From the NCBI GenBank assembly GCA_025999275.1, contig AP024680.1, positions 244,728 through 308,727 on the forward strand: a stretch of DNA of 64,000 nucleotides, written 5' to 3'. Positions 3,540-20,464 of the stretch are shown here, in pieces; positions within the stretch are counted from its first letter, which is position 1; each line of letters begins with the position of its first letter. Position numbers and translations under genes: made by a program. A model generated the notes under the pieces. That model was given only the letters and a program-made list of their open reading frames with translations, did not search any database and was not told where the DNA came from. Source of the stretch: Patescibacteria group bacterium. Its GTDB lineage: Bacteria; Patescibacteriota; Microgenomatia; UBA8517.

Positions 3540-3858
3540 CCTTGGAGAGGGAGCAATCGCCCCGCTTTTTGCGGGGAGGAAAGTCCGGACAGCAGAAAGG
3601 CAGGATGCGCCGCGCAAGCGGTGACCCGAAAGGGCTGGTCCCCTCTTGTTAAAGGGGCGCTGGGTGAATTGACACCCTGCGAGAGCAACAGAGACGAGTC
3701 TTGTCTTTTCCTAAAGAAAAGATAAGGGTGAAACGGGCAATCCCCTCCGCTGCAACCTGCGAATTGGACGTTTGAGGTGCCTTTCCCGATGTCCTAAGGC
3801 AGGGCATTAGATAGATGATTGCTTAGAAACAGAATCCGGCTTACCACTCTCCAAGGCG
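3540..3858 (+). ncRNA. rnpB: RNase P RNA, bacterial type A-like and compact
   Basis: GGAAAGTCCGGAC (P4 5' strand), CGCGCAAGCGGTGA, AAGGGTGAAACGGG and ACAGAATCCGGCTTACC (P4 3' strand) are all present. P1 pairs ttggagag (3542-3549) with ctctccaa (3847-3854). The locus is GC-rich within an AT-rich genome. Confidence 0.85.
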
Positions 3859-3862
3859 CCAA

Positions 3863-3894
3863 TAAGCCGTATCTTAAGATGCGGCTTTTTTATT
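3863..3894 (+). terminator. Rho-independent terminator of rnpB
   Basis: aagccgtatc-ttaa-gatgcggctt hairpin followed by a TTTTTTATT tract. Confidence 0.7.
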
Positions 3895-3939
3895 CTTGAC
3901 TTCTTTTGTTAAAAGCTTCAAGATGAAATAGGAGAGGGG

Positions 3940-4635
3940 GTGAAGAATATGGGAGGAATCGGTTATTTGGGTAATGTCTTTGCTGAATCGGCCAGAAGCG
4001 TTTGGTCTTTGTTTTGGGGTGCTTCTCTTAACATCTTTTGGGCGGTTGTTGTCTTTTTGGTCGGTTTGGCGGCAGCCTCTTGGGTTCAGAAATTGGCTAT
4101 CAAGTTTTTTGAGCTGACAAAACTTGAGAAGTTTTTGTCAAAGACAGGAATAGATAAACTTCTTGACAAGGCTGAAATAAAGCTTGGTGTGGGTGATTTG
4201 ATAGCTATTTTCTTAAGATGGCTTGTTGTACTTACCTTTTTCTTAGCCGCCATTGATATTTTGGGGCTAAACACTGTTTCTCAGGTTCTATTTTCTATCT
4301 TAGGCTATGTACCAAGCATTGTTGCGGCTATTTTTGTTTTTGTTTTGGGCTATTTGGTGGCCAACTTGATTGAGGGTTTGGTAAAGGGGGCGGTTGCCTC
4401 GATTGATAAAAACATTGCCAGGCCGCTTTCTGTTCTTTCAAGGTGGCTCATTCTTTTAATTGCCTTTTTTGCCGCTCTTGACCAATTGAAGATAGCCCAA
4501 GGTTTGATTAACACTTTCTTTCAAGGCCTAACTTATACTTTTGTTTTGGCTGTAGGTTTGTCTTTTGGTCTTGGGGCAAAGGATTTGGTATCGAGAATTT
4601 TGAATGATTGGTACGACAAGTTAAATAAGAAGTAA
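3940..4635 (+). CDS. Membrane protein with two MscS-like conserved TM-helix repeats
   Basis: A repeated hydrophobic module, FWxxVVFLVGLxxAxWV then LRWLVVLTFFLAAIDILGL, resembling the conserved TM helix domain of mechanosensitive-channel-related proteins. An SD sequence (ggagagggggtg) precedes the start. Confidence 0.45.
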   Translation: MKNMGGIGYLGNVFAESARSVWSLFWGASLNIFWAVVVFLVGLAAASWVQKLAIKFFELTKLEKFLSKTGIDKLLDKAEIKLGVGDLIAIFLRWLVVLTFFLAAIDILGLNTVSQVLFSILGYVPSIVAAIFVFVLGYLVANLIEGLVKGAVASIDKNIARPLSVLSRWLILLIAFFAALDQLKIAQGLINTFFQGLTYTFVLAVGLSFGLGAKDLVSRILNDWYDKLNKK

Positions 4636-4637
4636 TT

Positions 4638-6167
4638 ATGCTTGCCAAAATTGTATCAGGGGCCACTATTGGCCTTGAAGGTTGTTTGGTTGAAGTTGAA
4701 GTAGACGTGCCGGGGGAAGGCCTTCCGGCATTTAATATTGTTGGCCTTCCTGACAAGGCGGTTGAAGAGTCAAAAGAAAGGGTTAGATCTGCCCTTAAAA
4801 ATTCGGGCGCAGATTTTCCTGGTGGACGAGTCACGGTAAACTTGGCTCCTGCTGATTTACCAAAAGTTGGCCCTGCCTACGATCTCCCAATAGCCCTTGG
4901 CCTAATGGTTGCTTCAGGCCAAATTCCTAATTTAACCTCTGAATCTTTGTTTTTTGGCGAGCTTTCTCTTGATGGGAATTTAAGACACACAAACGGGGTA
5001 TTGCCAATAGTTTATCTTGCTCGTGAGAAGGGGATAAAGAAGGTTTTTATTCCCAAGGTGAACCAGGAGGAGGCCTCAATTGTTTCAGGAGTTTCTATTT
5101 ATCCAGTTGAGAATTTAATCAGTCTGGTTAGGTTTTTTATGGGCACTTTTGAAATCAAGCCAGTGGGGAAGACTGATTTATCGGTTCTTCTTAAAAATAC
5201 ACCCGCAGAGTTTGATTTTTCTGAAATTATAGGGCAAGAACATGCCAAAAGGGCAATGGAAATAGCAGCTGCTGGGTCGCACAATATTTTTATGAAGGGA
5301 ACACCTGGATCTGGAAAAACAATGTTAGCGCGCGCTTTGCCTGGCATTTTGCCAAGATTAACAGAAGATGAAGCTTTGGAAGTTACCAAAATTTATTCGG
5401 TTACTGGCAATTTATCATCAGGCCAGTCAATTGTAACAACCAGGCCTTTTCGAAGCCCACATCACACTACCAGTAGAGTTGGCTTGATTGGCGGAGGCTC
5501 GAATTTAACTCCAGGTGAAGTTTCTCTTGCGCACCGAGGGGTTTTATTTTTGGACGAATTTCCGGAATTTCCAAGAAATGTTTTGGAAAGTTTACGACAG
5601 CCATTGGAGGATGGAAAGGTGACAATCTCAAGGGCAAAAGGGTCGGTTACCTACCCCGCTTCTTTTCTTTTGGTTGCCGCCGCCAATCCCTGCCCTTGCG
5701 GCTATTATGGGGATCCAAAAAGAGTTTGCAAGTGCTTGCCCGGCCAAATCGCGAGGTATCAAAAGAGAATTTCAGGGCCAATTCTAGACAGAATTGATAT
5801 TCATATTGAAGTGCCTTCAGTTGAAACGCAAAAACTGGTTTCAGAGGCAAAAATTAAACCTGAGTTTTCAAAAGAGATTCAATCACGTGTTCAGAAGGCA
5901 AGAGAAAGACAAACCAAAAGATTTAAAGGAACAAATTTGAAGTCAAATTCAGAAATGGGAACAAGGGATGTTAAAAAATATTGCCCTCTTTCGGATGATT
6001 GTCGCACAATATTAAGAAGTGCTATTGCAACTTTGAATTTGTCTGCTCGAGGTTATTTTAAGGTTATAAAAGTTGCAAGAACAATTGCCGATTTGGAAGG
6101 ATCTGAAGAAATTTCAGTCAACCACATAGCAGAAGCTCTGCAGTACCGAATAAAAGACGAATCTTGA
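4638..6167 (+). CDS. YifB/ComM family Mg-chelatase-like AAA+ ATPase
   Basis: N-terminal Lon-like/ChlI domain. Walker A GTPGSGKT and Walker B LFLDEFPEF are present, with a C-terminal Mg chelatase subunit-like domain. Confidence 0.85.
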   Translation: MLAKIVSGATIGLEGCLVEVEVDVPGEGLPAFNIVGLPDKAVEESKERVRSALKNSGADFPGGRVTVNLAPADLPKVGPAYDLPIALGLMVASGQIPNLTSESLFFGELSLDGNLRHTNGVLPIVYLAREKGIKKVFIPKVNQEEASIVSGVSIYPVENLISLVRFFMGTFEIKPVGKTDLSVLLKNTPAEFDFSEIIGQEHAKRAMEIAAAGSHNIFMKGTPGSGKTMLARALPGILPRLTEDEALEVTKIYSVTGNLSSGQSIVTTRPFRSPHHTTSRVGLIGGGSNLTPGEVSLAHRGVLFLDEFPEFPRNVLESLRQPLEDGKVTISRAKGSVTYPASFLLVAAANPCPCGYYGDPKRVCKCLPGQIARYQKRISGPILDRIDIHIEVPSVETQKLVSEAKIKPEFSKEIQSRVQKARERQTKRFKGTNLKSNSEMGTRDVKKYCPLSDDCRTILRSAIATLNLSARGYFKVIKVARTIADLEGSEEISVNHIAEALQYRIKDES

Positions 6168-7901: not shown

Positions 7902-9188
7902 ATGGCGGCAAAAATTGATATTTTTGAGAAGCTTTCAAGGCGGATAAAAAAGTTTGCAAGAAAAATTTTCTTTTCTTTTATTTCCTATATTAAAAAGCTT
8001 ATTTTCCCTATTTATCTTTTCCCCATTAAAATTTTCACCTACAGTCTTTATTATTCGATTAGGTTTGCGTTTAAATTTATTTTTACCTTTTTTTCTTTGA
8101 TTTTTGAGACAATTATTTTTCCTTTCAAAAGCCTTAAAAATTTTTTAAAGTCAATCTTCTTTCTTGCGATTTTTGTTTACCTTTTGTTTTCAGTCCTTGT
8201 CATAGCTGATTATTTGAGCAGACAATACGGCAACTTTAGAAAGATTTTCTGTGATTTGGGAGTTAAAGAGAGATTAAGAAAATCGGTTGTCAGAGTAATT
8301 GGCGGTTATTCTCAAGGTTCCGGATTTTTTATTTCTCCAAACAGGGTTGTTACAAATTTCCATGTTGTTGATGGAGAGATTGCGCCCAAAATTATTCTTC
8401 CAGACGGCAGAATGATAATTCCTGAAAAGTTTCTTGGCAACAAAGAAGCCGATATTGCTGTTATCTTTACAAAAGAGGAATATCCACAACTAGTTTTGCC
8501 AGTGAATCAAAGAGACATTCTTGAAAAGATAGCCAAAGGCGAAGTTGGTTTCGAAAATTATCAATCAACTTTATCGGAAGACGCCATTGTCTTTGCCGCT
8601 GGATATCCATTGGGCACAGAAATTAAAGGAAACCCTACAATTTTAAAGGGAAGATTTTTAGATTACAGAATCAGCTCTCCGATTGTGTACATACAAACAG
8701 ACATCACTTTGGTTGAGGGGATGAGCGGAGGTCCTTTTACTGATGTTTGCGGAGAGGTGGTCGGCATTAACACTAAAGGAGTTGGGGGAATGTCTTTTTT
8801 TCTTTTTTTAAGAGATGCTTGGAAATATATAGACGATCAAAAAGGCGAGCTTCTTTCTGATAAAGATATTAGAAAAATTGCTTTTGATCCTTCAAAATCC
8901 CCCCAAGAGGCGGTCTCTGCCTTTTATGCCTATATCAGCGCAAGAAGGATGGAAGACGGTTTTTCTCTTTTGAGTGAAAAATATAAACAGAAGACAAATC
9001 TTGAAGAATGGTCTAGTCGTTTTAGGGATGTAATTGATATCCAAGTTTGGAAAGTAGAGCTTGAGGATAAAAAGAAAAACAGAGTTTTTGTTAAGTTTTC
9101 AACCAAAAACTGGACAAATCAGAATGTTGAAATACATCATTACGAAGGTACTTGGGAAGTTGTTTTGGAAGATGGGTTTATAAAATGA
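7902..9188 (+). CDS. Trypsin-like serine protease with N-terminal TM region and C-terminal domain of unknown function
   Basis: Catalytic His at GSGFFISPNRVVTNFHVV, Asp at ADIAVI, Ser at EGMSGGP. These are chymotrypsin-fold S1 motifs. Confidence 0.65.
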   Translation: MAAKIDIFEKLSRRIKKFARKIFFSFISYIKKLIFPIYLFPIKIFTYSLYYSIRFAFKFIFTFFSLIFETIIFPFKSLKNFLKSIFFLAIFVYLLFSVLVIADYLSRQYGNFRKIFCDLGVKERLRKSVVRVIGGYSQGSGFFISPNRVVTNFHVVDGEIAPKIILPDGRMIIPEKFLGNKEADIAVIFTKEEYPQLVLPVNQRDILEKIAKGEVGFENYQSTLSEDAIVFAAGYPLGTEIKGNPTILKGRFLDYRISSPIVYIQTDITLVEGMSGGPFTDVCGEVVGINTKGVGGMSFFLFLRDAWKYIDDQKGELLSDKDIRKIAFDPSKSPQEAVSAFYAYISARRMEDGFSLLSEKYKQKTNLEEWSSRFRDVIDIQVWKVELEDKKKNRVFVKFSTKNWTNQNVEIHHYEGTWEVVLEDGFIK

Positions 9189-9254: not shown

Positions 9255-9638
9255 TTGATTTTTAATATGGAAAGAAATCTTTGTTTGGAATCAGGATGCA
9301 AGGGATATTGCTGTGAGGATATAGATATTGAGGTTACAGGTTGTGAGAGAACTAGGCTTTTTCCAAAGGCAAAAGCAGTTTCTTCAATTAAACAGCTGGC
9401 AGAAATTAAAGAATCAGGAAATGTCGGTGTGTTTTATACAAAATATGAAAGAGAGGGTTTGGAAGGAGATTTTTATATTGTTTGTATAAACGGACCCTGC
9501 CCCAATAGACTTGAGGATGGCAGTTGTGCAAAGCATAGTGAGCGCTCTTATGCAGCAAGAAATTTCAAAATTGGCAGCCGAGAGTGCAATGAGATTCGCC
9601 TCTCCCACGGCCTTCCTACAATTGCAGATGAGATTTAA
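9255..9638 (+). CDS. Cys-rich hypothetical protein with a YkgJ-type CxxCxxCC putative Fe-S/zinc-binding motif
   Basis: ESGCKGYCCED motif plus additional Cys residues (CINGPCPN, GSCAKH). Confidence 0.4.
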   Translation: MIFNMERNLCLESGCKGYCCEDIDIEVTGCERTRLFPKAKAVSSIKQLAEIKESGNVGVFYTKYEREGLEGDFYIVCINGPCPNRLEDGSCAKHSERSYAARNFKIGSRECNEIRLSHGLPTIADEI

Positions 9639-9720: not shown

Positions 9721-11523
9721 ATGGCGGGAGATAACAATAACTCAGGTATCGATAAAACAGAGCTTGTCTGGCCCGGCAAGCGCAAAGAGGTTGAGCGGGT
9801 AGAGCTGCCGTTTCAGACGATTGAGACGATTAACCTACCGCGCGGTACTCGCCAAGATGAACTATTTGGAGACAAAACAGAAGGATGGAAGAATCGGCTC
9901 ATTTGGGGCGACAATCTTTTAGTGATGGGTTCGCTTCTCAAAGAGTTTGCCGGAAAAATAAACCTTATTTACATTGATCCGCCTTTTGCTACCGGAGATG
10001 ATTTTTCTTTTGAAGTACAGATTGGTGATGGTATTGAAATTACCAAAGAGCCATCGGCAATGGAAGTAAAAGCCTACCGCGATACTTGGGGCAAAGGTCT
10101 TCAGTCATATCTTCAAATGATGTACGACCGACTGGTTTTGATGAAAGAACTTTTAGCGGACGATGGCTCAATTTATGTACATTTAGACGCTACTGTTGGA
10201 CATTATGTTAAAACAATAATGGATGAAATTTTTGGGAAGGAGAATTTTCGCCGTCAAATTATATGGGTAATGACTGGAATAGCTGGGTATAAGGGTTTGG
10301 TAAATAATTATGTTCGTGGGCACGATCTTATTCTGTACTACACTAAAACTAGCAATCACGTCTTTAATAAAACCTACATTCCATATTCCGAAAAACAGCT
10401 TGCACGCTTTTCAGGCATTGATGAAAAAGGGCGACGATATAAACCAATCACAAAAGATAGGAGACTTTATTTAGATGAGGCAAAAGGTATTCCAATAACA
10501 GATGTTTGGTCAGATATTGTAGGTTTTCATACCATCGTTAACGCCCCGGAAGATGTTAAATATCCCACTCAAAAACCGGAAAAATTACTTGAACGGATAA
10601 TTAAAACATCTTCAAATGAAGACGATCTTGTCGCTGACTTTTTCTGCGGCTCCGGTACCACTGGTGTAGTGGCGGAGAAACTGGGCAGGCGATGGATTAT
10701 GTCCGATCTCGGACGCTACGCTATCCACACTACTCGCAAGCGGCTTTTAGATATGGGTGCCAAGCCTTTTATTGTGCAAAATCTTGGCAAATACGAGCGC
10801 CACCGCTGGGCAAAACTCAATGGAAAATACAAGGACTACATCAAATTTATTTTAGAGCTTTATCACGCCGAGCCGGTGGATGGCTTTACTCACCTGCATG
10901 GCAAGAAAGATAAGAGTTTTGTCCGCGTAGGCAGCGTAGACGCGCCAGTTACGCTTTCGGAAATCCGTGAGGCGCTCTCCGAATGTAAAGAAAACAATAT
11001 CAAAAAGTTGGATGTGCTTGGCTGGGAGTGGGAAATGGGCTTGCATGATTTGGTCAAAGAAGAGGCGGAAAAATATGGGGTCAAACTAGCTACTTTACAG
11101 ATTCCGAGGGAAGTAATGGAATTATCTGTCGCAGACGCCCAAAAACATGATATTCAATTTTACGAATTGGCGTATTTGGAAGTTGAGGTGAAAGTTGAGG
11201 GCAAGCACGCAACCATAACGCTCAAAGATTTTATTATTCCCAATCCGGAGCTCTTGCCGGAAGAAGTGAAAGGTAAAGTCAAAAGCTGGAGCGACTTTAT
11301 TGACTACTGGGCAGTGGACTGGATGTTTAATCAGCACGAAGAAGAAACAGAAGAAGATGACACCTTCCACAATATGAACCAGCGCTACCGCACCCGCAAG
11401 GAGCCAAAGTTGGAGGTTTCAATGAGCTATGAGTATAAAAACAAAGGTCGATATAACATCCTTGTGAAGGTTATTGATATTTTTGGAAATGATACGACGA
11501 AGCTAATTGAAGTAAAAGTATGA
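9721..11523 (+). CDS. mod: Type III restriction-modification system methyltransferase (Mod), beta-class N6A/N4C DNA methyltransferase
   Basis: Motif IV LIYIDPPF precedes motif I VADFFCGSGTTGVVA, the beta-class order typical of Type III Mod. A variable target-recognition region lies in the middle. GC is high relative to the flanking sequence. The stop overlaps the next start (ATGA). Confidence 0.8.
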   Translation: MAGDNNNSGIDKTELVWPGKRKEVERVELPFQTIETINLPRGTRQDELFGDKTEGWKNRLIWGDNLLVMGSLLKEFAGKINLIYIDPPFATGDDFSFEVQIGDGIEITKEPSAMEVKAYRDTWGKGLQSYLQMMYDRLVLMKELLADDGSIYVHLDATVGHYVKTIMDEIFGKENFRRQIIWVMTGIAGYKGLVNNYVRGHDLILYYTKTSNHVFNKTYIPYSEKQLARFSGIDEKGRRYKPITKDRRLYLDEAKGIPITDVWSDIVGFHTIVNAPEDVKYPTQKPEKLLERIIKTSSNEDDLVADFFCGSGTTGVVAEKLGRRWIMSDLGRYAIHTTRKRLLDMGAKPFIVQNLGKYERHRWAKLNGKYKDYIKFILELYHAEPVDGFTHLHGKKDKSFVRVGSVDAPVTLSEIREALSECKENNIKKLDVLGWEWEMGLHDLVKEEAEKYGVKLATLQIPREVMELSVADAQKHDIQFYELAYLEVEVKVEGKHATITLKDFIIPNPELLPEEVKGKVKSWSDFIDYWAVDWMFNQHEEETEEDDTFHNMNQRYRTRKEPKLEVSMSYEYKNKGRYNILVKVIDIFGNDTTKLIEVKV

Positions 11524-12437
11524 GTGGAGTTAATTTTCACTTTCTAGATGTAGGTGACGGCGACTGTACGATTGTTGATTTTCCGGAGCGTGTTGTGAAA
11601 AGTACCGGCAAGACAAAGAATGCCCGGGTTATGATGGTAGATATACACCATCACGATGATCATAACGACTATGAGCATGTCATAAATTACTACAAACAGA
11701 ATATTGGCGACCGTTCTATTTTTAGATTCATTGCTACTCATCCACAGAAAGATCACATTAAAGGCATAAAACAATTGTTTGAAGATTATGGTATAGAGAT
11801 TTTGAACTTCTGGGATTTAGAGCACGACTTTGAACCAGATAAAGGTGACGAATATTGGGAGGATTACAAAGATGATTGGGAAAAATATTGCGAGATTAGA
11901 GTAATGAAAGACGAAGAAGGGCTTTGCGTTAGACGCTATTGGGATCACCAAAGTGGCATACAATATTGGGACGAGGACAGAATAGAGATTCTTTCACCAT
12001 CAAAGGAGTTGTACCAATTTGTTCACTATACTGAAGAAGGCGAAAAAAGAAGCAAAGAAGAAATCGGAGAATTAATTAACAACATGTCTTATGTTCTGCT
12101 GGTCCGCATCAACAACTTGAAAGTGTTGCTTGCTGCAGACGCAGAGGAGAAGTGCTGGGAATACATATTGAAGAAACATAAGAAGAAAATTGAGAATATT
12201 GATATTTTGAAGGCCGCTCACCATGGTCGGTTAAGTGGATTTCATGAAGAGGCGGTAAAAATTATGAGGCCAAAGCACATCGTTTTTTCTTGCTCTTCGG
12301 ATACCGATCATGAGCACGGAGCGGAAGATGAATACAAAAAAATAGTGCCAGATGCAGAATTTTATAAAACATATCATTACGGCACCATTGTCCTAAATTG
12401 CGATTTTAACGGAAATATAACCCATATACGAGCATGA
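11520..12437 (+). CDS. Metallo-beta-lactamase-fold hydrolase, ComEC/Rec2 C-terminal-domain-like (first paralog)
   Basis: HFLDVGDGDCTIV (beta-lactamase-fold DxGxGD entry), ATHPQKDH (HxHxDH-type motif), LKAAHHGR (C-terminal His pair) and a His-rich HHHDDHNDYEH segment. ATGA overlaps with both neighbours. Confidence 0.55.
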   Translation: MSGVNFHFLDVGDGDCTIVDFPERVVKSTGKTKNARVMMVDIHHHDDHNDYEHVINYYKQNIGDRSIFRFIATHPQKDHIKGIKQLFEDYGIEILNFWDLEHDFEPDKGDEYWEDYKDDWEKYCEIRVMKDEEGLCVRRYWDHQSGIQYWDEDRIEILSPSKELYQFVHYTEEGEKRSKEEIGELINNMSYVLLVRINNLKVLLAADAEEKCWEYILKKHKKKIENIDILKAAHHGRLSGFHEEAVKIMRPKHIVFSCSSDTDHEHGAEDEYKKIVPDAEFYKTYHYGTIVLNCDFNGNITHIRA

Positions 12438-13249
12438 CAAGAATTCACATTTTTGATGTTGAACACGGGGAATGCAATGCCATAGAGACACCTTCTGGCG
12501 ATTTGGTATTGATAGGTGCTGGCCATAATTCCTCTACAAATTGGCGACCATCAAACTGGTTGCGACAGCGCAATCGAAGACCGCACTGTCTTGTTTTAAG
12601 CAATCTAGACCGAGATCATCTTTCTGATTTGGCGAATTTTGAACCCCATATCCGTCCAGTAAGTATTAAGTACAACAGCTATATTAATCCCGACTGGGCG
12701 GAAAGTAAAAAGATCGAAGAAAGTGGCGAGGTACACGAGGGGGTTCAGACAGCTCTGCATTGGATACGAAATGTTTTCACTGGCTCGCCAATATCTCCGA
12801 ACTATGGGATGGAAATTGCTTATTTTCATCATTCACCGACAAATTTTCAAGATACAAATAACTTGAGTGTTGTTACTTTTGTTGCTTACAACGGGGTTGG
12901 TGTAATGTTCCCAGGAGACATTGAAACCGCTGGATGGAGAGAATTTTTAACAAATCAGACATTTGTAAATTGTTTGAGGCGAACAAGGATTTTAATCGCT
13001 TCTCATCATGGACGAGAAAGCGGTTATTGTCGCGAAGTGTTCAATTACTGTGCTCCTGATGTAGTGATTATTTCTGATAAGCCGCTAATGCACGAGACAC
13101 AAAACCATAATCTCTACGCCCAGCATTGTAGTGGCTTAAACTCCAACGGTAATCTTAGGAAAGTATTAACTACCCGCAACGATGGTAAGCTTACGATTGA
13201 AATTCCGGCGATTGGAAACTATACCGTTTATATCAATCAAAATTATTGA
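12434..13249 (+). CDS. Metallo-beta-lactamase-fold hydrolase, ComEC/Rec2 C-terminal-domain-like (second paralog)
   Basis: FDVEHGECNAIETPSGDLVLIGAGH, SNLDRDH and IASHHGRESG repeat the motif arrangement of the preceding ORF. Confidence 0.55.
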   Translation: MTRIHIFDVEHGECNAIETPSGDLVLIGAGHNSSTNWRPSNWLRQRNRRPHCLVLSNLDRDHLSDLANFEPHIRPVSIKYNSYINPDWAESKKIEESGEVHEGVQTALHWIRNVFTGSPISPNYGMEIAYFHHSPTNFQDTNNLSVVTFVAYNGVGVMFPGDIETAGWREFLTNQTFVNCLRRTRILIASHHGRESGYCREVFNYCAPDVVIISDKPLMHETQNHNLYAQHCSGLNSNGNLRKVLTTRNDGKLTIEIPAIGNYTVYINQNY

Positions 13250-13252
13250 GCT

Positions 13253-13870
13253 ATGGAACAAAAAGTTTTCTCAAAATTTAATGTATATGACCAAATCGGC
13301 TACCTGATGGTTGGCGCACTTACCCTATTACTGCTTGTTTTTAACACAGTTTATTTCTTTCAAGTTGCTGTCCCCTCTTTCAGTTTAGATACTTTCTTAA
13401 TCTGGTTCATTGTCGCTTATTTTGTAGGACATTTTATGCAGGGAGTTGCAAATCTTATCAACGAGATAAAATTTTTGCGTTTTTTGGTTCCGGAAAACAA
13501 AAAAGATTTTGATGACAAGCAAAAAGAAATATTGCAACAAGCAAAAGAATATTTTGGATTACATAAACAAGATGACAGCAGATTATGGAATCTATGTTAT
13601 ATGTTAGCCAGCGCCAAAGATATAACTGGTCAAGTGCAAGCATTTAACTCCTATTACAGCTTGTATCGGGGTTGGCTCATCGTGTTTATTTTGGAGTCAT
13701 TGTTTTTACTCTATTTTATTTTTTCGGCTTTCAACTTGAACACTTTGCTGTTATTTTTGGCGAGCATATTTTTTTCTGTCATATTTTATCGGCGTTCAAA
13801 GCGCTTTTGGAGCTATACGAAGGATAAGGTTTTAGAAACTTTTGTCATTGTTAAAACTTTGAATCTATGA
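13253..13870 (+). CDS. Four-TM membrane protein of unknown function in the Mod-Res operon
   Basis: The start is 3 nt after the preceding stop and the stop overlaps the res start (ATGA). Two N-terminal and two C-terminal TM helices flank a charged cytoplasmic segment. Confidence 0.5.
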   Translation: MEQKVFSKFNVYDQIGYLMVGALTLLLLVFNTVYFFQVAVPSFSLDTFLIWFIVAYFVGHFMQGVANLINEIKFLRFLVPENKKDFDDKQKEILQQAKEYFGLHKQDDSRLWNLCYMLASAKDITGQVQAFNSYYSLYRGWLIVFILESLFLLYFIFSAFNLNTLLLFLASIFFSVIFYRRSKRFWSYTKDKVLETFVIVKTLNL

Positions 13871-16356
13871 GTAAATCATCTAAACAACAATCACTACTTC
13901 CTCTCGTCCGCGCCCTACAGCTGGCGGTGGCGGCGTGGCGTGAGGGTGGATATAAAGAAGGCACGAGTGAGACGACCCGGCGGCTTTTGGAGTGGTGGTT
14001 TATGGAAGATCACGAGCTTGCAGATGGAAAAAGTTTTGCTTTTTGGCAAGCGCAAAGAGAAGCAATTGAACATCTAATTTATTGCTATGAGGTTTTGGAA
14101 GCGCGCAGTTTATACAAACTTGCGCAACAGCTTGATGTGAGGATTCCAATTGACCCAAGCGCCGACAAATGGGCAAAATACGCTTTCAAAATGGCGACCG
14201 GCTCGGGCAAGACAATGGTAATGGCGATGACAATTGCCTGGTCGTATTTTAACGCGACAAAAGAAAAGCGGGAAGATTTTACAAAACATTTTGTGCTTAT
14301 TGCGCCAAATCTGATTGTGCTTGATCGCTTATTCGGTGATTCAAAGAATCCGGAATTCTTTGAAGGCGCAATTTTCAAAAAATTTCCTTTCATTCCGCCG
14401 GAATGGTTATCAGATTTTCAACTTGATGTCATTGGTCCAGACGAGGAACGGGAAGCTACCCGTCCGGCAACGCTTTATCTCTTGAACTGGCAGAAGTTTA
14501 TTGAGCGCGAAAATGGCGAAGCAGAAAATCCGGTACAGGATATTTTAGGACCAAAGCCGCCGAGCGAAATTGCCGTTTCTTTGGCAAAGCTAAAAGACAG
14601 ATTGTCTCATCTTTCAAATGTGATGGTGATAAATGACGAAGCGCATCGTGTATGGAGCGAAGAACTCGTTTGGTATAAGGCGATTGAAAATCTCCACGAG
14701 ACCGTAGGACTGATGTGCCAGCTTGATTTTTCAGCAACGCCGAAAGATCAAGACGGGCGGCTTTTTACACATATTATTACCGATTACAATTTGGGCACGG
14801 CGATTGAAGACAACATTGTTAAGCGTCCCAAAATTGCCGAACTTGAGAATGTACCTGAAATTGAAAGTGAGAACGCGGCAGAAAAATACCGTGTTCAAAT
14901 AGATGCTGGTATTAAACAGTGGAAAGTTATGAAAAAGACGCTTGAGAAAGCCCAGAAAAAACCGGTTATCTTTTTTGTTACCGAAGATAACACGGCCGCT
15001 GACGAGGTTGCTGAGTATCTTCAAACTTTTCCTGAGTTTAGCGGCGATAAAACTTTGACGATTCATTCCGGCAGAACTAAAGATCAGATTGCCGAAAAGG
15101 ATTTGGCTAAAGCAAGAAAGGCGGCGCGCGAGATTGATTCACTGGATAATCCTCATAACGCTATTGTTTCTGTTTTGATGTTGCGCGAAGGGTGGGATGT
15201 TAAAAATGTAGTTGTGGTTGTGCCCTTGAGATCCTTCAGCGCCAAAGCCAAAATTTTTCCGGAACAAACCTTGGGAAGAGGTTTACGAAAAATGTGGCCA
15301 GATCGACAAGAATTAGTTGAAGAATTGATTGTTATAGAGCATCCGGAATTTCATGATTTAATTGAGCAGGCACTTGCCGAACAGGGCGTAAAAGTGGAAT
15401 TTACTTCACTTGAAGAAGCGTATACTCCACCTATTATTATTCAGGTCGAGGAAGGCAAAGAAAAATTTGATATAGAAGTGCCGATGCTTTCCGGTGGCTT
15501 GACGCACTCGGTTAAAGGGATTGAAAAGTTGCAGCCAAGCGCCCTAGAAAAAGGATTGTTCGATTATGACTCTCTGCAGGCTCGGGATGTAACTTTGCGC
15601 AAAGTTGATATGCTGACGAAAAAAGAGGAAGCCAGAGAAGTACTGGAATTTCCGTACGCGGACAATCCGCAAATGTATATTGCGAGCATTACCAACGCGG
15701 TTTTGCGATTTGCGAGAATTCCCGGACACTTTGATAAAGTTGTGCCGCAAGTCAAGGAGTACATCTCGAAGCACCTGTTTGATAGAAAGGTGGATATTGC
15801 TAATCTAGAAACTTTGAAGAAACTCAATCATCCAAAAGTACGCGGCGCAATTATCTCCGTTTTTGTTGATGCTATTAATAATTTAACGATTGTATCGGAG
15901 GAAATGAGGCTTGAGGAACGGAAAACTCGAGCGTCAGAAATTAAACCATTCCCGTGGACAAAACTTGCAGTGGCAGCGCAAAAGTGCGTCTTGAATTTTA
16001 CACCGGTTGATAACGATTTTGAGGCGAAGTTTGTAAAATTTCTCGATGGAGCAGGCGATGTTGAAGCTTTTATCAAAAATGAAACAAGGACTGTAAATCT
16101 TAAAATTCCATATATCGCAAAGGACGGGTTTTTACGTCGCTATATTCCAGACTTTATCGTCAAAACGAAAGATGGTATCGTGATTGTAGAAACAAAAGGA
16201 CGAGAGGATGTTGATGTTGCGGCAAAGGATTTACAGGGCAGACGCTGGGTAGAAGAAATTAGCAAGCGAACCAGAACTAAGTGGATTTTCTTGCGTGTTG
16301 ATCAAAAAGAATTTGAAAAGTCGAGGTATAGTAATTTTTCAGAATTGACAGTATAA
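13867..16356 (+). CDS. res: Type III restriction enzyme Res subunit (SF2 helicase with C-terminal PD-(D/E)xK nuclease)
   Basis: Walker A MATGSGKTMVMA and DEAH box VINDEAHRV. C-terminal nuclease motif DFIVKTKDGIVIVETKGRE. The length and domain order fit Type III Res. Confidence 0.8.
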   Translation: MSKSSKQQSLLPLVRALQLAVAAWREGGYKEGTSETTRRLLEWWFMEDHELADGKSFAFWQAQREAIEHLIYCYEVLEARSLYKLAQQLDVRIPIDPSADKWAKYAFKMATGSGKTMVMAMTIAWSYFNATKEKREDFTKHFVLIAPNLIVLDRLFGDSKNPEFFEGAIFKKFPFIPPEWLSDFQLDVIGPDEEREATRPATLYLLNWQKFIERENGEAENPVQDILGPKPPSEIAVSLAKLKDRLSHLSNVMVINDEAHRVWSEELVWYKAIENLHETVGLMCQLDFSATPKDQDGRLFTHIITDYNLGTAIEDNIVKRPKIAELENVPEIESENAAEKYRVQIDAGIKQWKVMKKTLEKAQKKPVIFFVTEDNTAADEVAEYLQTFPEFSGDKTLTIHSGRTKDQIAEKDLAKARKAAREIDSLDNPHNAIVSVLMLREGWDVKNVVVVVPLRSFSAKAKIFPEQTLGRGLRKMWPDRQELVEELIVIEHPEFHDLIEQALAEQGVKVEFTSLEEAYTPPIIIQVEEGKEKFDIEVPMLSGGLTHSVKGIEKLQPSALEKGLFDYDSLQARDVTLRKVDMLTKKEEAREVLEFPYADNPQMYIASITNAVLRFARIPGHFDKVVPQVKEYISKHLFDRKVDIANLETLKKLNHPKVRGAIISVFVDAINNLTIVSEEMRLEERKTRASEIKPFPWTKLAVAAQKCVLNFTPVDNDFEAKFVKFLDGAGDVEAFIKNETRTVNLKIPYIAKDGFLRRYIPDFIVKTKDGIVIVETKGREDVDVAAKDLQGRRWVEEISKRTRTKWIFLRVDQKEFEKSRYSNFSELTV

Positions 16357-16793
16357 CTCTAATTAAGGTATTACACTTCATAAGTGGCATAGCTTCACAA
16401 GTTTGGAGTTTTTTGTTTTCTTTTCAAAAGTATTAAATAAATGAAAGAGTTTTTATGGTGTGTTAAAATTCTATGAGAGGGATGGTCTGAAAAAGAAAAA
16501 ATAAATGGAAGAAATTGATTCAAAAATTAGCGAGCTAATAAATCAAGTTAAGGAGTGTGCTAGAGATGCTTATAAAAAAATTGGTTAGTGGTGTTCAGGT
16601 TTTGGATGTCGAAGCTGTTAAATAACACAAACTCTTCTGCTTTATGTTTATGCTCGGAATTTAAAAACAGGCAAAGGGTATAAAAAAAGTTTTGGTTATC
16701 AGTTAGTTTTTAAGCCAGCAACAAAAGATTATCAAGTAAAAGCAAAAGGGAATATTGATACGCAACTAGTTTTATATCCATCGGTAAAAATAT

Positions 16794-17432
16794 ATGGAAA
16801 ATTTTAGATTTGAATTGAAAGGAAAAACATTGGTAATTGTTGACTGGGCGAATGTTTATGGTTGGTTTGAAAAATTGAAATGGGAAATTGACGAGAAGAA
16901 GCTTTTTAAATATCTTAAAAGTTATTCTCCAATAAAAGAAATTCGTTTTTATTTTGGAGTTGAGAAAGGCAATAAAAAATCAGAAGAGTTTCAGAAAAGG
17001 ATTAAGAAAATTGGTTATATTTTAGTTTCCAAAGAAGTTAAATGGGTGCCGGTAACACTTGATAGAACTCATTTTAAAGAATTTTTAAGTAAGCTTTTTT
17101 TACTGGCAAATATTTTAGAATCTTCTAACTCAAAAATTGCCAATCTTTTAAGACAATTACCTAAAAATCCAATTTACAGGAGGAAATGTGATTTTGATTG
17201 TGAGATTAGTATAGATGTGATGAAAAATCTAAATAATTATGATGGCTTTATATTGTTTAGCGGCGATGGCGATTATGCCGCTTTGATAAAAGAAATAATC
17301 AATAACCGAAAACAAGCCATAGTTGTTGCTTTGAAAAACTCAATGGGGAAAGAATATACAGATATCAAAAAGGGATTGTTTATTTGCAATGTTAAGAAGT
17401 TTAAGAAGTTTATTAAAAGAAATTCCCGGTAG
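16794..17432 (+). CDS. NYN-domain (LabA-like PIN nuclease) protein
   Basis: VIVDWANVYGW and ILFSGDGDYAALIKE, acidic residues arranged as in NYN/LabA nucleases. Isolated between two long non-coding stretches. Confidence 0.6.
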   Translation: MENFRFELKGKTLVIVDWANVYGWFEKLKWEIDEKKLFKYLKSYSPIKEIRFYFGVEKGNKKSEEFQKRIKKIGYILVSKEVKWVPVTLDRTHFKEFLSKLFLLANILESSNSKIANLLRQLPKNPIYRRKCDFDCEISIDVMKNLNNYDGFILFSGDGDYAALIKEIINNRKQAIVVALKNSMGKEYTDIKKGLFICNVKKFKKFIKRNSR

Positions 17433-17665
17433 ATATACTACCGGGCGTGATTGGGATTATGATACCATCTTGAATAGTGCTTGTCAATAGTGTTGACAAG
17501 TATGTTAGTTGAAATTGTACACTCCAGGAGTGTTATAGCTGAGTGTTATAGCTTCACACACTTTAGATTGTGTACACTGAAAGTCAGCCTGCTGGTGGGT
17601 GTATTAGCTTGGTGCCAAATAAGAGGGTGGGTTATGTGTTAATTAAAATTAGGTCAAAAGGCTGG

Positions 17666-18325
17666 TCAAAAGTGATCTTTCCATTCTCCACTTTCAATTA
17701 TTTCAGTAATAGATTTATTTTGAGTGGCTAACCAAGCTCTCAATCTTTTTTGATTGGGGTAACCTTTTTCTTCAGGGTTAGTAAATACAGTTAAAGCTTC
17801 TTTTAACGATTCAAACTTTTCTTCATCTAATTCTTTCTTTAAGCCGTCAAAATAATAATAAAACATAAAATGATTAAGCTCGTGTGTTAATATTTTGATT
17901 TGTTTTTCAGTGGATGCCCCGGCGAAAATCATAATCCATCTTTTTTTAAAATTATATGGGCAAATTGGTAAAGAAGAGAGAAATACTTTCACTGTTTTAA
18001 AAGGAAATTCTTTACCGTAAATTTTTTGCAATTTATTTTCTATTGTAGGCCCTTTCTCTTTCCAAGCTTTTTTTAAATCTTTAGCAACTTTTAAATATTT
18101 AATTTTTCTACCTTCTAGACCTTGAAGTAGGAAATTTTTGATTATTTTTTTAGCCTCTTTTTCGTTTTTGGCATTTTTAAGACTAGTTTTAAATTTTTCA
18201 GGGAGAGCTAAAATTATTTTGTCTTGAATATTATCTCTGCCATGCTTATACCATACAAACTTATAGACAGAATTTAAATAATTCCATACATCTTGGTCCA
18301 AAGAATAACTCACATTTAGGTTCAT
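17666..18325 (-). CDS. Hypothetical protein with an HExxH zinc-metallopeptidase-like motif
   Basis: ILTHELNHFMFYY. Otherwise Lys-rich with no clear family. Confidence 0.35.
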   Translation of the reverse strand: MNLNVSYSLDQDVWNYLNSVYKFVWYKHGRDNIQDKIILALPEKFKTSLKNAKNEKEAKKIIKNFLLQGLEGRKIKYLKVAKDLKKAWKEKGPTIENKLQKIYGKEFPFKTVKVFLSSLPICPYNFKKRWIMIFAGASTEKQIKILTHELNHFMFYYYFDGLKKELDEEKFESLKEALTVFTNPEEKGYPNQKRLRAWLATQNKSITEIIESGEWKDHF

Positions 18326-18392
18326 AAATTTTATTTTAGATGCTGGTGTTAACTATTATATTAAGTTTAACACTTCGGGAGTGAAATGATTT

Positions 18393-18698
18393 TTGCAAAT
18401 AGTTTATGAAGAGAATAGTTTCTTTATTGACTGCTATTGTGAGGTGTGTTTTAATTGTCTTATGTTAACTCAGAGGGATTTGGATGAAATTGAAAAAGTT
18501 GTAGAGGAAAAGATAGAAGAGAAAACTCGTAACTTGCCTAGCAAAGATGATTTTTTTACCGCGATTGATGAAGTTATGGACGAGTTAAAAACAATAAGAG
18601 AGAATCAAGAAGTTTTGACAAATAGGGTTTATGAAGATCATGAGAGTAGAATCAAAAGATTGGAGAAGAAACTCCAGATTTCTAGTTCTAACTTTTGA
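18393..18698 (+). CDS. Small coiled-coil hypothetical protein
   Basis: A 101-aa ORF with an N-terminal Cys cluster (CYCEVCFNC) and an acidic/helical remainder. Confidence 0.3.
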   Translation: MQIVYEENSFFIDCYCEVCFNCLMLTQRDLDEIEKVVEEKIEEKTRNLPSKDDFFTAIDEVMDELKTIRENQEVLTNRVYEDHESRIKRLEKKLQISSSNF

Positions 18699-18832
18699 TT
18701 TCTAGTTGGCTAAACTAATTTAGGAAATAAATACAAATCGTAAATTATTGATTGGTTTTTTAAGCTTTTGTTTTAAAAACTTCACTCCTTTTAATTTTCC
18801 ACTTATCTTTAGTGTAAAATAACAAATTAGAA

Positions 18833-19285
18833 GTGAAAGATTCTGAAATTGTTGTAAGTATCAAGATTGATAAGGACCCTTTTTGGATTTTTGATTTTAT
18901 TTTTAAGGCAATAGTAATAACTAGATATCTTTGGGGAGTTTTTAGGAAAAATTACAATCATTTTAAGCCTGATATAAAAAATATTCTTTTTGTAGAGGTT
19001 GTTATCAAAAAAATTTATAGAATTTTGATTTATTTTATTTTTGCCTTTTTCTTAATCTCATATTTGGATTTTAAAAATTTTATCTCTGAAGAAAAATTTT
19101 TTTTCGTTTGGGCAGCTTTTGGCTCTTTATTTTTTGCTTTTTACTTTTTAACCACCATTTATATTGCTTTTTATTTAATAATTCTTTTTTTCCTTTGGAT
19201 AAGGGCGGTTTTAAAAAGTCTTGTTCATTTTATTAAAGATATATTTACTCCACCAGATGAGGAAGAAGAAAAGACTTTAAAGTAG
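18833..19285 (+). CDS. Hypothetical membrane protein
   Basis: Several predicted TM helices. No family assignment. Confidence 0.35.
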   Translation: MKDSEIVVSIKIDKDPFWIFDFIFKAIVITRYLWGVFRKNYNHFKPDIKNILFVEVVIKKIYRILIYFIFAFFLISYLDFKNFISEEKFFFVWAAFGSLFFAFYFLTTIYIAFYLIILFFLWIRAVLKSLVHFIKDIFTPPDEEEEKTLK

Positions 19286-19294
19286 GAGTTTATT

Positions 19295-20464
19295 TTAGTT
19301 TGTTTTATTTAATTTTATTTTAATGGTAATCATAAATACTAAAAATAAAATTGCTGAGGCAAGAGCAAAAGGAATATTTTTACCAAAGATATAAAAAATT
19401 TCACCGCCAATTATTGGCCCCAAAATTCTTCCCAAAGAACCTGCTGACTGCAGAAAACCTAGAGTCCCCCCATATTCTTCTTTTTTTACATTTTCTGAGG
19501 CAATTGCTTGAAGAGAAGGGTTTGCCAAACCATTTCCCAGAGGCATAAAGGTTAAGGCAAGGTAAAAAATTATCTCGTTTTTTGCCATATAAATTAAAAG
19601 GAAGCTTAGAAATAAGTTAAAAGTGGCAATTTTTAGAATATTTCTTTCGTTAATTCTTTTTAATAGGAAGGGTAATATAACAAGTTGCACTAAAACCGCC
19701 AGAACACCAACATAAGCAAATATCGCTCCGTTTTTAGAAGCATCGTATCCAAATGTTTTTTCTGTCCATAAGGCTAAATTTCCTTGAGTTAAAGAAAAAG
19801 AAAGATTAATAAGAAAGAAAATTAGAATTAAAAATACAAAGTTTGGGATTTGTAAAACTTTTTTTAACTCTTCCAAGCTAAACTCAGTTCTTTTGCTGTG
19901 GGTTGATTTTTCTGTATTTACAGTCTCATCAAGAAACAAGAAAGTAGTCATAATTGTAAGTAGGGAAACAAAAGCGGCCAATAAAGCTGGGGCAGAATAA
20001 GATATTTTGGATAAAGCTCCTCCAATTGCCGGGCCAAATATGAACCCTAGTCCAAAAGCAGCGCCAATCAACCCCATACCTCGGGCACGATTTTTATTAT
20101 CAGTGACATCAGCTATGTAAGCTTGAGCGATAGAGATGTTTCCTCCTGTTATTCCATCTATGATTCTTGAAATAAAAAGTAGCGGCAGGCTGTTTGCTAA
20201 AGCCAAGATTAAGTATCCAATAGCACTTCCTAACTGGGACAAAATTAGTATCTTTTTTCTTCCATATCTGTCTGATAATCTTCCCAAGATTGGAGATGCA
20301 ATAAGCTGAAAAAATGAATATGTAGCCGTTAGGAAACCAATTTGGGCTGGGTTTGCCTCATATTTTTCTGCAATGAAGGGTAGAAGGGGTAAAATAATTC
20401 CAAATCCAAGTAGATCTATAAAAACGATTAAGAATATGGTAATTAATGCTTTTTTGTTTTTCAT
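19295..20464 (-). CDS. MFS transporter (drug:H+ antiporter-like)
   Basis: Twelve-TM profile. MFS motif A GRLSDRYGRKKILI after TM2. Confidence 0.8.
   Translation of the reverse strand: MKNKKALITIFLIVFIDLLGFGIILPLLPFIAEKYEANPAQIGFLTATYSFFQLIASPILGRLSDRYGRKKILILSQLGSAIGYLILALANSLPLLFISRIIDGITGGNISIAQAYIADVTDNKNRARGMGLIGAAFGLGFIFGPAIGGALSKISYSAPALLAAFVSLLTIMTTFLFLDETVNTEKSTHSKRTEFSLEELKKVLQIPNFVFLILIFFLINLSFSLTQGNLALWTEKTFGYDASKNGAIFAYVGVLAVLVQLVILPFLLKRINERNILKIATFNLFLSFLLIYMAKNEIIFYLALTFMPLGNGLANPSLQAIASENVKKEEYGGTLGFLQSAGSLGRILGPIIGGEIFYIFGKNIPFALASAILFLVFMITIKIKLNKTN

Follow-up and report, generated by a model that had tools for sequence, protein, structure and literature searches.

The stretch of Patescibacteria DNA analysed here (64,000 nucleotides; hereafter, the window) contains a type III restriction-modification (R-M) operon with three additional genes lodged between its methyltransferase gene, mod, and the gene of its restriction subunit, res. 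The five genes lie head to tail on the plus strand. The first, mod (9721–11523), is followed by two genes for metallo-β-lactamase (MBL)-fold hydrolases of the ComEC type, MBL-A (11520–12437; 305 residues) and MBL-B (12434–13249; 271 residues), then by a gene for a Csx27-like membrane protein of 205 residues with four predicted helices (13253–13870), and finally by res (13867–16356). We refer to the three inner genes as the trio or the cassette, in which MBL-A is the first gene, MBL-B encodes the core enzyme and the membrane protein gene is the third. A previous sequence-only reading of this DNA had described the two MBL genes as tandem plus-strand open reading frames inside a restriction operon, and both the frames and their location were borne out by our analysis; it had overlooked the membrane protein gene, the third member of the unit.

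Stop and start codons overlap as ATGA between mod and MBL-A, between MBL-A and MBL-B, and between the membrane protein gene and res, while MBL-B and the membrane protein gene are separated by a gap of 3 nt. A scan of the operon for promoter and terminator consensus sequences returned counts at or below those expected from shuffled sequence, and none of the internal hits was convincing. We read the five genes as a single operon, which would be translationally coupled. Mod matched the Pfam family N6_N4_Mtase (149 bits) and, over its full length, the PADLOC model MTase_III (6e-118), and its translation shows DPPF and FxGxG motifs. Res matched Pfam ResIII (59 bits) and PADLOC REase_III (2e-24), shows ATGSGKT and DEAH motifs, and ends in a weakly recognised TnsA/NERD-type nuclease region (Pfam). 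The operon thus joins a Mod methyltransferase to a Res helicase-nuclease of superfamily 2, as expected of a type III R-M system. Approximately between 10250 and 10560, mod has no nucleotide similarity in blastn to orthologues that are otherwise 75–83% identical; this segment is probably the target-recognition domain, which would imply that methylation specificities differ between the operons. As for base composition, G+C content is 39–43% at 10001–16000, where the operon lies, versus 28–32% just downstream (16001–20000), a step that is consistent with horizontal acquisition of an R-M island.

The sequence-only reading had taken MBL-A and MBL-B for divergent ComEC-like paralogues, and BLASTP, hhalign, profile searches of the PDB and AlphaFold2 (AF2) models compared by Foldseek all agree with this view. 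Direct comparison of the two proteins by BLASTP detected homology across 73 C-terminal residues (E 6e-9), and comparison of the family profiles, built from 24 homologues each, extended it to 262 columns (hhalign probability 99.7%, E 2.3e-26). Judged from these alignments, MBL-A and MBL-B are paralogues and full-length homologues, far above chance. In the PDB profile search the MBL domain of ComEC (9ic4) was matched at 6e-16 by MBL-A and at 3.9e-8 by MBL-B, with full-length ComEC entries next. The AF2 models were of high predicted quality (pLDDT 93.5 and pTM 0.92 for MBL-A; pLDDT 92.9 and pTM 0.91 for MBL-B), and Foldseek again returned 9ic4 as the best match for both (E 6e-16 for MBL-A and 2e-14 for MBL-B; TM scores 0.69–0.79). 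Second for both was the phosphorylcholine esterase Pce/CbpE (2bib, 1wra), which the MBL-A profile also matched in sequence, and then came IntS11, CPSF73 and RNase J. Dozens of MBL-fold PDB entries were matched at a Foldseek probability of 1.0, which places both proteins in the MBL superfamily. The Pfam family Lactamase_B scored 14.1 with MBL-B against a threshold of 22.7 and did not match MBL-A. Hydropathy plots revealed no hydrophobic N-terminal or transmembrane segment in either protein, and family hidden Markov models (HMMs) found no further MBL paralogue and no ComEC gene elsewhere in the window.

Inspection of the motifs refined this assignment. The sequence-only reading had ascribed a DxGxGD entry to both proteins; MBL-A indeed has one (DVGDGD), and the corresponding segment of MBL-B reads DVEHGE. 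The HxHxDH-like motifs that it had picked out (ATHPQKDH in MBL-A, NLDRDH in MBL-B) and the C-terminal HHG were found in both proteins at the expected residues. In MBL-A, motif II is H74-P-Q76-K-D78-H79, motif III N187-N-M-S, motif IV D207 and motif V H234-H235-G; in MBL-B, motif II is N57-L-D59-R-D61-H62, motif III N142-N-L-S145, motif IV D162 and motif V H191-H192-G-R. Set against the five canonical MBL motifs (D; HxHxDH; H; D; H), both proteins retain IV and V and have Asn at III, with motif II taking the form HxQxDH in MBL-A and NxDxDH in MBL-B. The ligands are kept in homologues: those of MBL-B are invariant in 24 homologues of 43–82% identity, and of the 24 homologues of MBL-A all have D207 and H234-H235-G, and at least 90% have H74, D78 and H79. 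The exception is Q76, which is peculiar to the closest relatives of MBL-A, most other family members having His or Asp there. The His/Asp-rich stretch HHHDDHNDYEH to which the sequence-only reading had drawn attention (residues 43–53 of MBL-A in translation; 11646–11678) is real, follows directly after D41 of motif I and was modelled at a pLDDT of about 91; its conservation, as DIHHH[DE]DH.., is confined to the closer homologues in the alignment, and the distant ones carry a long unrelated insert.

These deviations have a precedent in ComEC itself. Compared with canonical MBL enzymes, the ComEC nuclease domain has Asp for one motif II His and Asn for the motif III His; it is a Mn-dependent DNase, and mutating both motif II aspartates abolishes its activity (PMC8579336). 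The ComEC signature, consisting of the motif II Asp, the motif III Asn and HHG, is complete in MBL-B, which keeps both motif II aspartates and the motif III Asn and whose one deviation is that Asn replaces the first His. In MBL-A the motif III Asn and the HHG are present, with Q or H at the Asp position. The invariance of the altered residues in MBL-B argues for a functional site. It is plausible that the two proteins, with their ComEC-like fold and retained metal-ligand motifs, are nuclease effectors, as the sequence-only reading had proposed, and by analogy with ComEC we consider MBL-A and MBL-B most likely to be MBL-fold phosphodiesterases acting as metal-dependent DNases. The heterodimer that it had also proposed is plausible, because the two genes are adjacent and translationally coupled and because pairs of a catalytic and a degenerate MBL protein such as CPSF73/100, IntS11/IntS9 and RNase J1/J2 are found among the fold matches.

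The hydropathy plot of the membrane protein shows four hydrophobic stretches, which it places at residues 11, 38, 137 and 159. It had no Pfam match, and its similarity to Csx27 is weak (PADLOC 4.4e-6; NCBIfam 16.9 bits against a cut-off of 65). In an alignment of 32 family members, Y12 and R139 are invariant and an FNxxYGxxR motif stands out; 14 of the 32 match Csx27 and two match the PADLOC model PDC-M48A (best E 1.8e-4), to which the protein in the window gave no match in the PADLOC scan. For the association with MBL-B, we called open reading frames in 85 MBL-B loci and ran iterative searches against them with the five operon proteins of the window, combined with hydropathy; both the iteration and the hydropathy were needed, as single-sequence phmmer under-detected the membrane partner. 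A small multi-pass membrane protein adjoins MBL-B on one side or the other in about 70 of the 85 loci, and several of the remaining ones are short contigs. The partners are of three types, namely the family of the window's protein, a shorter family of 141–159 residues and a divergent four-helix family of 217–225 residues. An MBL-A-like second gene was present in only about one third of the MBL-B loci, so that MBL-B has its obligate partner in the membrane protein and not in MBL-A, which is dispensable in most loci. Where the trio is complete, its genes occur in the orders A-B-TM, A-TM-B and B-TM-A, TM being the membrane protein.

The link between the two proteins is made physical in a natural fusion, P0272, which was found in two independent assemblies. 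In this 501-residue protein, hhalign aligned residues 2–223 with the family of the membrane protein (99.8%, E 4e-28); MBL-B makes up residues 229–498, and the MBL domain comes after the Arg/Lys-rich C-terminus of the membrane protein. From this arrangement, together with the lack of a hydrophobic N-terminal segment in the MBL proteins, we infer that the enzymes would lie on the cytoplasmic face of the membrane.

The position of the cassette was defined by comparison with orthologous mod-res operons, which we found by searching metagenomes and the protein database with Res, a protein with roughly 8000 homologues, and aligned to the window by blastn (L089–L098). Nucleotide similarity between these operons and the window is 70–83%. 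It runs through mod until 11516–11526, the stop codon of mod ending at 11523, and restarts at 13866–13896, the start codon of res lying at 13867. As the homology ends at the mod stop codon and restarts at the res start codon, the replaced interval (11524–13866) corresponds exactly to the three cassette genes. The Res proteins of operons with differing slot content are 60–92% identical.

What occupies this interval varies widely. The cargos of the metagenome loci are mutually unrelated by phmmer. In the orthologous operons we found a 596-residue AAA_15 ATPase resembling AriA and OLD (L089), a 643-residue UvrD/GajB-like helicase (L090), a 471-residue protein with a weak match to Schlafen/AlbA_2 (L091), a DUF3800 protein (L092), a protein combining AlbA_2 and HATPase_c_4 (L093) and an AAA_21/AbiL-like ATPase (L094). 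Further operons carry a 568-residue OLD nuclease with a Toprim domain (L098; Old 1e-51) or a 582-residue SMC_N/AAA_21 ATPase (L103 and L104; Res 92% identical). In another (L105; Res 84% identical), the interval at 4531–6014 holds two genes, for proteins of 151 and 341 residues, which have no Pfam or PADLOC match and are candidate new defence genes. In Legionella pneumophila (L106–L108; Res 60% identical) the slot is empty, and mod and res overlap by 4 nt. The trio itself was found in the window and on contigs assigned to Doudnabacteria (L004/L005/L095), Saccharibacteria (L008) and Methanosarcinales (L006). In total, the slot holds the trio in four operons and other cargo in nine, and is empty in one. 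The three genes are thus a mobile, separable and exchangeable cassette in a hypervariable mod-res slot. No relatives of Res were found in a scan of viral contigs.

The module is not confined to this operon. A word-index search returned 1314 matches to MBL-B, and an exhaustive search with E ≤ 1e-30 gave 416 clusters (50% identity); about 250 species-representative genomes have an MBL-B relative, spread over bacteria of the candidate phyla radiation, Proteobacteria, Acidobacteria, Verrucomicrobia and others. The MBL-B of Methylacidiphilum, a verrucomicrobium, is 75% identical to that of the Patescibacteria window, and such identity is a clear sign of horizontal transfer. Complete trios occur without R-M genes in Methylacidiphilum caldifontis (L001) and in a further locus (L088), and in Syntrophus aciditrophicus (L002), where the trio has no R-M genes of its own and stands beside TIR and PLD genes. 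Another such trio (L086) is preceded by a gene for a LexA-like repressor and has a HaeII R-M system alongside. In about two thirds of 83 non-redundant loci, no methylase and no R-M helicase lies near the pair of MBL-B and membrane protein. An E2/E1/JAB neighbour is present in 11 of the 83, and apart from these and the loci with a methylase, discussed below, the rest have neither.

The pair also accompanies two other systems, Hma and 6A-MBL. In four loci (L026, L031, L033 and L063) the pair is nested between HmaA, a SNF2 helicase (2e-157), and HmaB, a DUF1156-type methylase (2e-117). In two others (L065 and L066) the gene order is MBL-A-like, a 750-residue E2/E1/JAB protein, membrane protein and MBL-B, and here the MBL enzyme is a genuine 6A-MBL enzyme (390–406 bits against a curated NCBIfam cut-off of 220), with the E2/E1/JAB protein cap2_3 reaching 632 bits in L065 (cut-off 320). 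Similar arrangements were found in L070 (6A-MBL enzyme 420 bits, cap2_3 538 bits) and L037 (6A-MBL enzyme 282 bits). Other combinations of MBL and methylase genes occur in L039 and L041, which have the order MBLA-MBLB-Mod-x-Res, and in L020 and L025.

Several observations on individual loci are worth recording. Two Mesorhizobium loci, L070 (6075–13979) and L078, carry a trio in the order MBL-A-like, membrane protein, MBL-B; in this island the trio is convergent with the true 6A-MBL pair (cap2_3 538 bits, enzyme 420 bits), which makes three MBL genes in all. The contig binned as a Methanosarcinales archaeon (L006; CAZFJK010000031.1) encodes Res, the membrane protein and an MBL-B that is 94% identical to that of the window; its nucleotide sequence is about 87% identical to the window, owing either to a transfer between domains in the very recent past or to faulty binning. 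Relatives of MBL-B with 30–39% identity are also present on four viral or proviral contigs of IMG/VR (L099–L102), one of which, L099, is 214 kb long. Near the Doudnabacteria copy of the operon (L004), a GmrSD-like gene (HEC-05, 5e-47) lies directly upstream of mod at 3541–5244, just preceded by a small helix-turn-helix gene and then by a divergent serine recombinase gene. The region as a whole has the look of a mobile defence island.

The surroundings of the operon in the window include other genes of possible interest. Two genes upstream, at 7902–9188 on the plus strand and 2.3 kb from MBL-A, lies the gene of a 428-residue Trypsin_2 protein whose N-terminus is hydrophobic and which matches protease domains of defence systems (RT-Protease_XI 1e-14; protease-type LmuA 1.3e-8). 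Its presence is intriguing, as proteolysis is what activates the ComEC-like nucleases of trypsin-MBL modules. We considered this protein as a conserved activating protease of the cassette and rejected the idea, as 108 loci contained only two weak, non-adjacent matches. Between this gene and mod, at 9255–9638 on the plus strand, is an open reading frame for a Cys-rich protein of 127 residues with a TTG start and weak CxxCxxCC/DUF6413 matches; in the syntenic relative L105 its place is taken by a Fic/RhuM gene. A NYN-domain (LabA-like) protein is encoded just downstream of res (16794–17432, plus strand), and a weakly similar NYN gene occurs near the Doudnabacteria copy of the operon (L004, 842–1354). 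Lastly, 3.5 kb upstream of the operon (4638–6167, plus strand) there is a gene for an AAA+ protein of the Mg-chelatase/YifB (ComM-like) family, which includes the natural-transformation helicase ComM.

Taken together, we lean towards the view that the type III R-M operon carries, in this cassette, a defence module that works autonomously as a DNase tethered to the membrane. The structural and genomic side of this picture is near certain; our confidence in the mechanism is moderate. As we envisage it, the Csx27-like membrane protein would hold MBL-B at the cytoplasmic face of the membrane, with MBL-A probably acting as a second, paired subunit, and the nuclease would degrade incoming or intracellular DNA there. 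The cassette would then form a second layer of defence, mechanistically independent of Res, and the R-M operon would supply expression and co-transfer, as well as conserved flanks through which cassettes could be exchanged by homologous recombination.

Some of our results weigh against this view and should be borne in mind. Motif II is non-canonical in both proteins, MBL-B having Asn in place of the first His and MBL-A having Gln where Asp or His is usual, so that activity is not guaranteed, and in the ComEC of S. pneumoniae, which has a similar Asn for the first His, activity is uncertain (PMC8579336). The proposed topology and complex formation rest on the distribution of charge and on one fusion only. 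About 15 of the 83 loci have a Mod- or HmaB-type methylase no more than 4 kb from MBL-B, in several gene orders, and this recurrence hints at a functional tie to DNA modification instead of pure hitch-hiking. Finally, a literature search on PDC-M48, the matching PADLOC candidate, found no paper.

A first alternative is that the MBL pair is an integrated accessory of the R-M system, a second nuclease that acts on the product of Res, for instance by degrading the ends left after type III cleavage where the host itself has few exonucleases. The translational coupling of the five genes, with no convincing promoter or terminator inside the operon, speaks for this explanation, as does the recurrence of MBL-B relatives beside methylase and helicase systems in varied arrangements (L039/L041, L020, L025 and Hma). 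We nevertheless regard it as unlikely, since most loci of MBL-B and membrane protein have no R-M genes and complete trios stand alone, and since operons whose Res is 84–92% identical hold wholly different cargo and the Legionella orthologue none. For the same reasons, that is, a separable cassette, trios free of R-M genes and unrelated or absent cargo in orthologous operons, the suggestion of the sequence-only reading that the pair is there to serve Res, as a second nuclease or as a processing enzyme, is not supported in that form. A different kind of dependence would be that of a guard, in which the Mod/Res complex silences the cassette and inactivation of the restriction enzyme by a phage frees a DNase or abortive-infection effector, much as prrC is embedded in the type IC locus EcoprrI (PMC12707154). 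Many cargos of the slot are effectors of the classic abortive or second-line kind (OLD, AriA/GajA-like, GajB-like and AbiL-like), which fits this idea; standalone trios, however, must have a trigger of their own, and the embedding could simply reflect co-transfer and co-expression. We think it improbable that a guard of this kind is at work. We give similarly little credence to its fullest version, in which the mod-res junction of this large type III R-M family would be a site, dedicated to the purpose and delimited by recombination, where second-line effectors dock and replace one another, and the trio a membrane-tethered DNase that Mod and Res silence until a phage disables restriction, as a type III counterpart of PrrC/EcoprrI with a whole range of guards.

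Two further explanations leave the R-M system aside. The Csx27-like protein might form a channel that lets DNA through the membrane, to be degraded by the ComEC-like enzymes, in the service of DNA uptake or nucleotide scavenging, a hypothesis that Makarova et al. are said to have published for the Csx27 family in 2019. In favour of it, both enzymes have ComEC as their closest solved structure, the partner in the membrane is constant, the fusion of membrane protein and MBL mimics the architecture of ComEC, and Patescibacteria rely on scavenged nucleotides. However, the membrane protein has only four helices and, lacking any Pfam match, does not detectably resemble the competence domain of ComEC; neither MBL protein begins with a hydrophobic segment, and in the fusion MBL-B follows a positively charged, presumably cytoplasmic C-terminus. 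Moreover, the neighbourhoods are defence islands and mobile elements, and the other cargos of the slot are defence genes. All this makes uptake very unlikely in our judgement. Least probable, by a little, is that the enzymes are not DNases at all, and that their phosphodiesterase activity is directed at something else, be it phosphocholine or lipid head groups, like that of Pce/CbpE, or signalling nucleotides, or that one or both copies are catalytically dead scaffolds. Pce/CbpE was the second structural match of both proteins and a sequence match of the MBL-A profile, and motif II is altered in both; on the other side, ComEC is the best match by sequence and by structure, MBL-B has the motif II Asp and the motif III Asn of ComEC and is invariant at its altered residues, and related MBL proteins of defence systems are proven DNases (PMC12799240).

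Seen in this way, an odd-looking R-M operon becomes a clear case of modular defence evolution, with a conserved mod/res frame, codon-exact recombination boundaries and at least ten alternative contents, counting the empty slot. The linkage of a widespread PDC-M48-type module, that is, an MBL enzyme and a Csx27-like membrane protein, to three host systems (type III R-M, Hma and 6A-MBL) suggests that the pair is a general-purpose, membrane-associated nuclease effector. Examining what lies between mod and res offers a simple route to new defence genes, and the slot is a tractable system for asking whether genes embedded in this way act as guards of the R-M system around them. The protein in which MBL-B is fused to the membrane protein, in turn, provides a direct handle on the membrane coupling of ComEC-like nucleases outside natural competence.

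Among known systems, the pair of MBL and membrane protein is already represented in PADLOC as the computational candidate PDC-M48. MBL-B matched the PDC-M48B models over its full length at 1.3e-53 (PDLC04674), and MBL-A at 2.6e-21 (PDLC04673). The two share a two-gene core of an MBL enzyme and a small membrane protein, and some members of the partner family match PDC-M48A; the window differs in having a second MBL paralogue and in placing the module between mod and res and not alone. ComEC/Rec2 (9ic4) is the best match in sequence and structure, with the same Asp in motif II, Asn in motif III and HHG in motif V, and it resembles the module in its association with a membrane protein, as mirrored by the natural fusion. 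In contrast to ComEC, the proteins of the window have no OB-fold and no competence channel domain (PF03772), so that only the MBL domain aligns, and their scores with TIGR00361, whose cut-off is 190, were 27.2 and 21.9 bits. They also differ in being two paralogues, each a polypeptide of its own, and in being probably cytoplasmic rather than extracellular.

6A-MBL, which consists of cap2_3 (NF058523) and an MBL enzyme (NF058524), is an experimentally confirmed defence system in P. aeruginosa, as described in a review and a preprint, and is grouped with type II CBASS-like conjugation pathways. Its enzyme belongs to the MBL-A-like group, and true 6A-MBL loci (L065, L066, L070 and L037) adjoin the pair of MBL-B and membrane protein. 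In the window, unlike in those loci, none of the five operon proteins matched cap2_3, the E2-E1-JAB protein that scores 538–632 bits elsewhere, and we rejected MBL-A as a 6A-MBL enzyme because it reached 30.2 bits against the NF058524 cut-off of 220. The Trypsin-MBL modules of HamM, Avs1a, Lamassu and DRT variants show that ComEC-like MBL DNase effectors have been captured repeatedly by unrelated defence systems; in protease-coupled modules such proteins, HamM among them, are DNases made as pro-enzymes (PMC12799240). MBL-A weakly matched PADLOC models of the LmuA, RTasMBL and Avs1a types, and its membership in Avs1a or Lamassu-MBL was rejected on curated cut-offs (28 bits against 420 for Avs1a). 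It also differs in having no adjacent protease-fused partner, as MBL-B, the membrane protein and res follow downstream. MBL-A is related to the MBL proteins of these defence systems without being a member of the systems.

The membrane protein shares with Csx27, the accessory protein of type VI-B1 CRISPR systems, four predicted helices and a weak, recurrent HMM match, in the window as in 14 of 32 relatives; unlike Csx27, it falls below the NCBIfam cut-off and no Cas13b partner was matched. More broadly, neither the operon proteins nor the scanned neighbours matched CRISPR-Cas families, the rest of the window not having been scanned for cas genes. At best, the protein would be a distant relative of Csx27. 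According to Makarova et al. in 2019, the Csx27 family is reportedly tied, on computational grounds, to ComEC-like enzymes, ubiquitin-like proteins and DNA-modification genes. As for the embedding, prrC in EcoprrI likewise is a second-line effector gene nested in an R-M operon, with the differences that its frame is of type I and its product an anticodon nuclease, whereas the window has a type III frame, MBL enzymes and a polymorphic slot with many cargos. We found no description of a mod-res slot in type III systems, prrC being the nearest precedent. What appears to be new is the trio with its two MBL enzymes, its precise embedding among many interchangeable type III mod-res cargos, and the joining of the membrane protein to MBL-B in one polypeptide.

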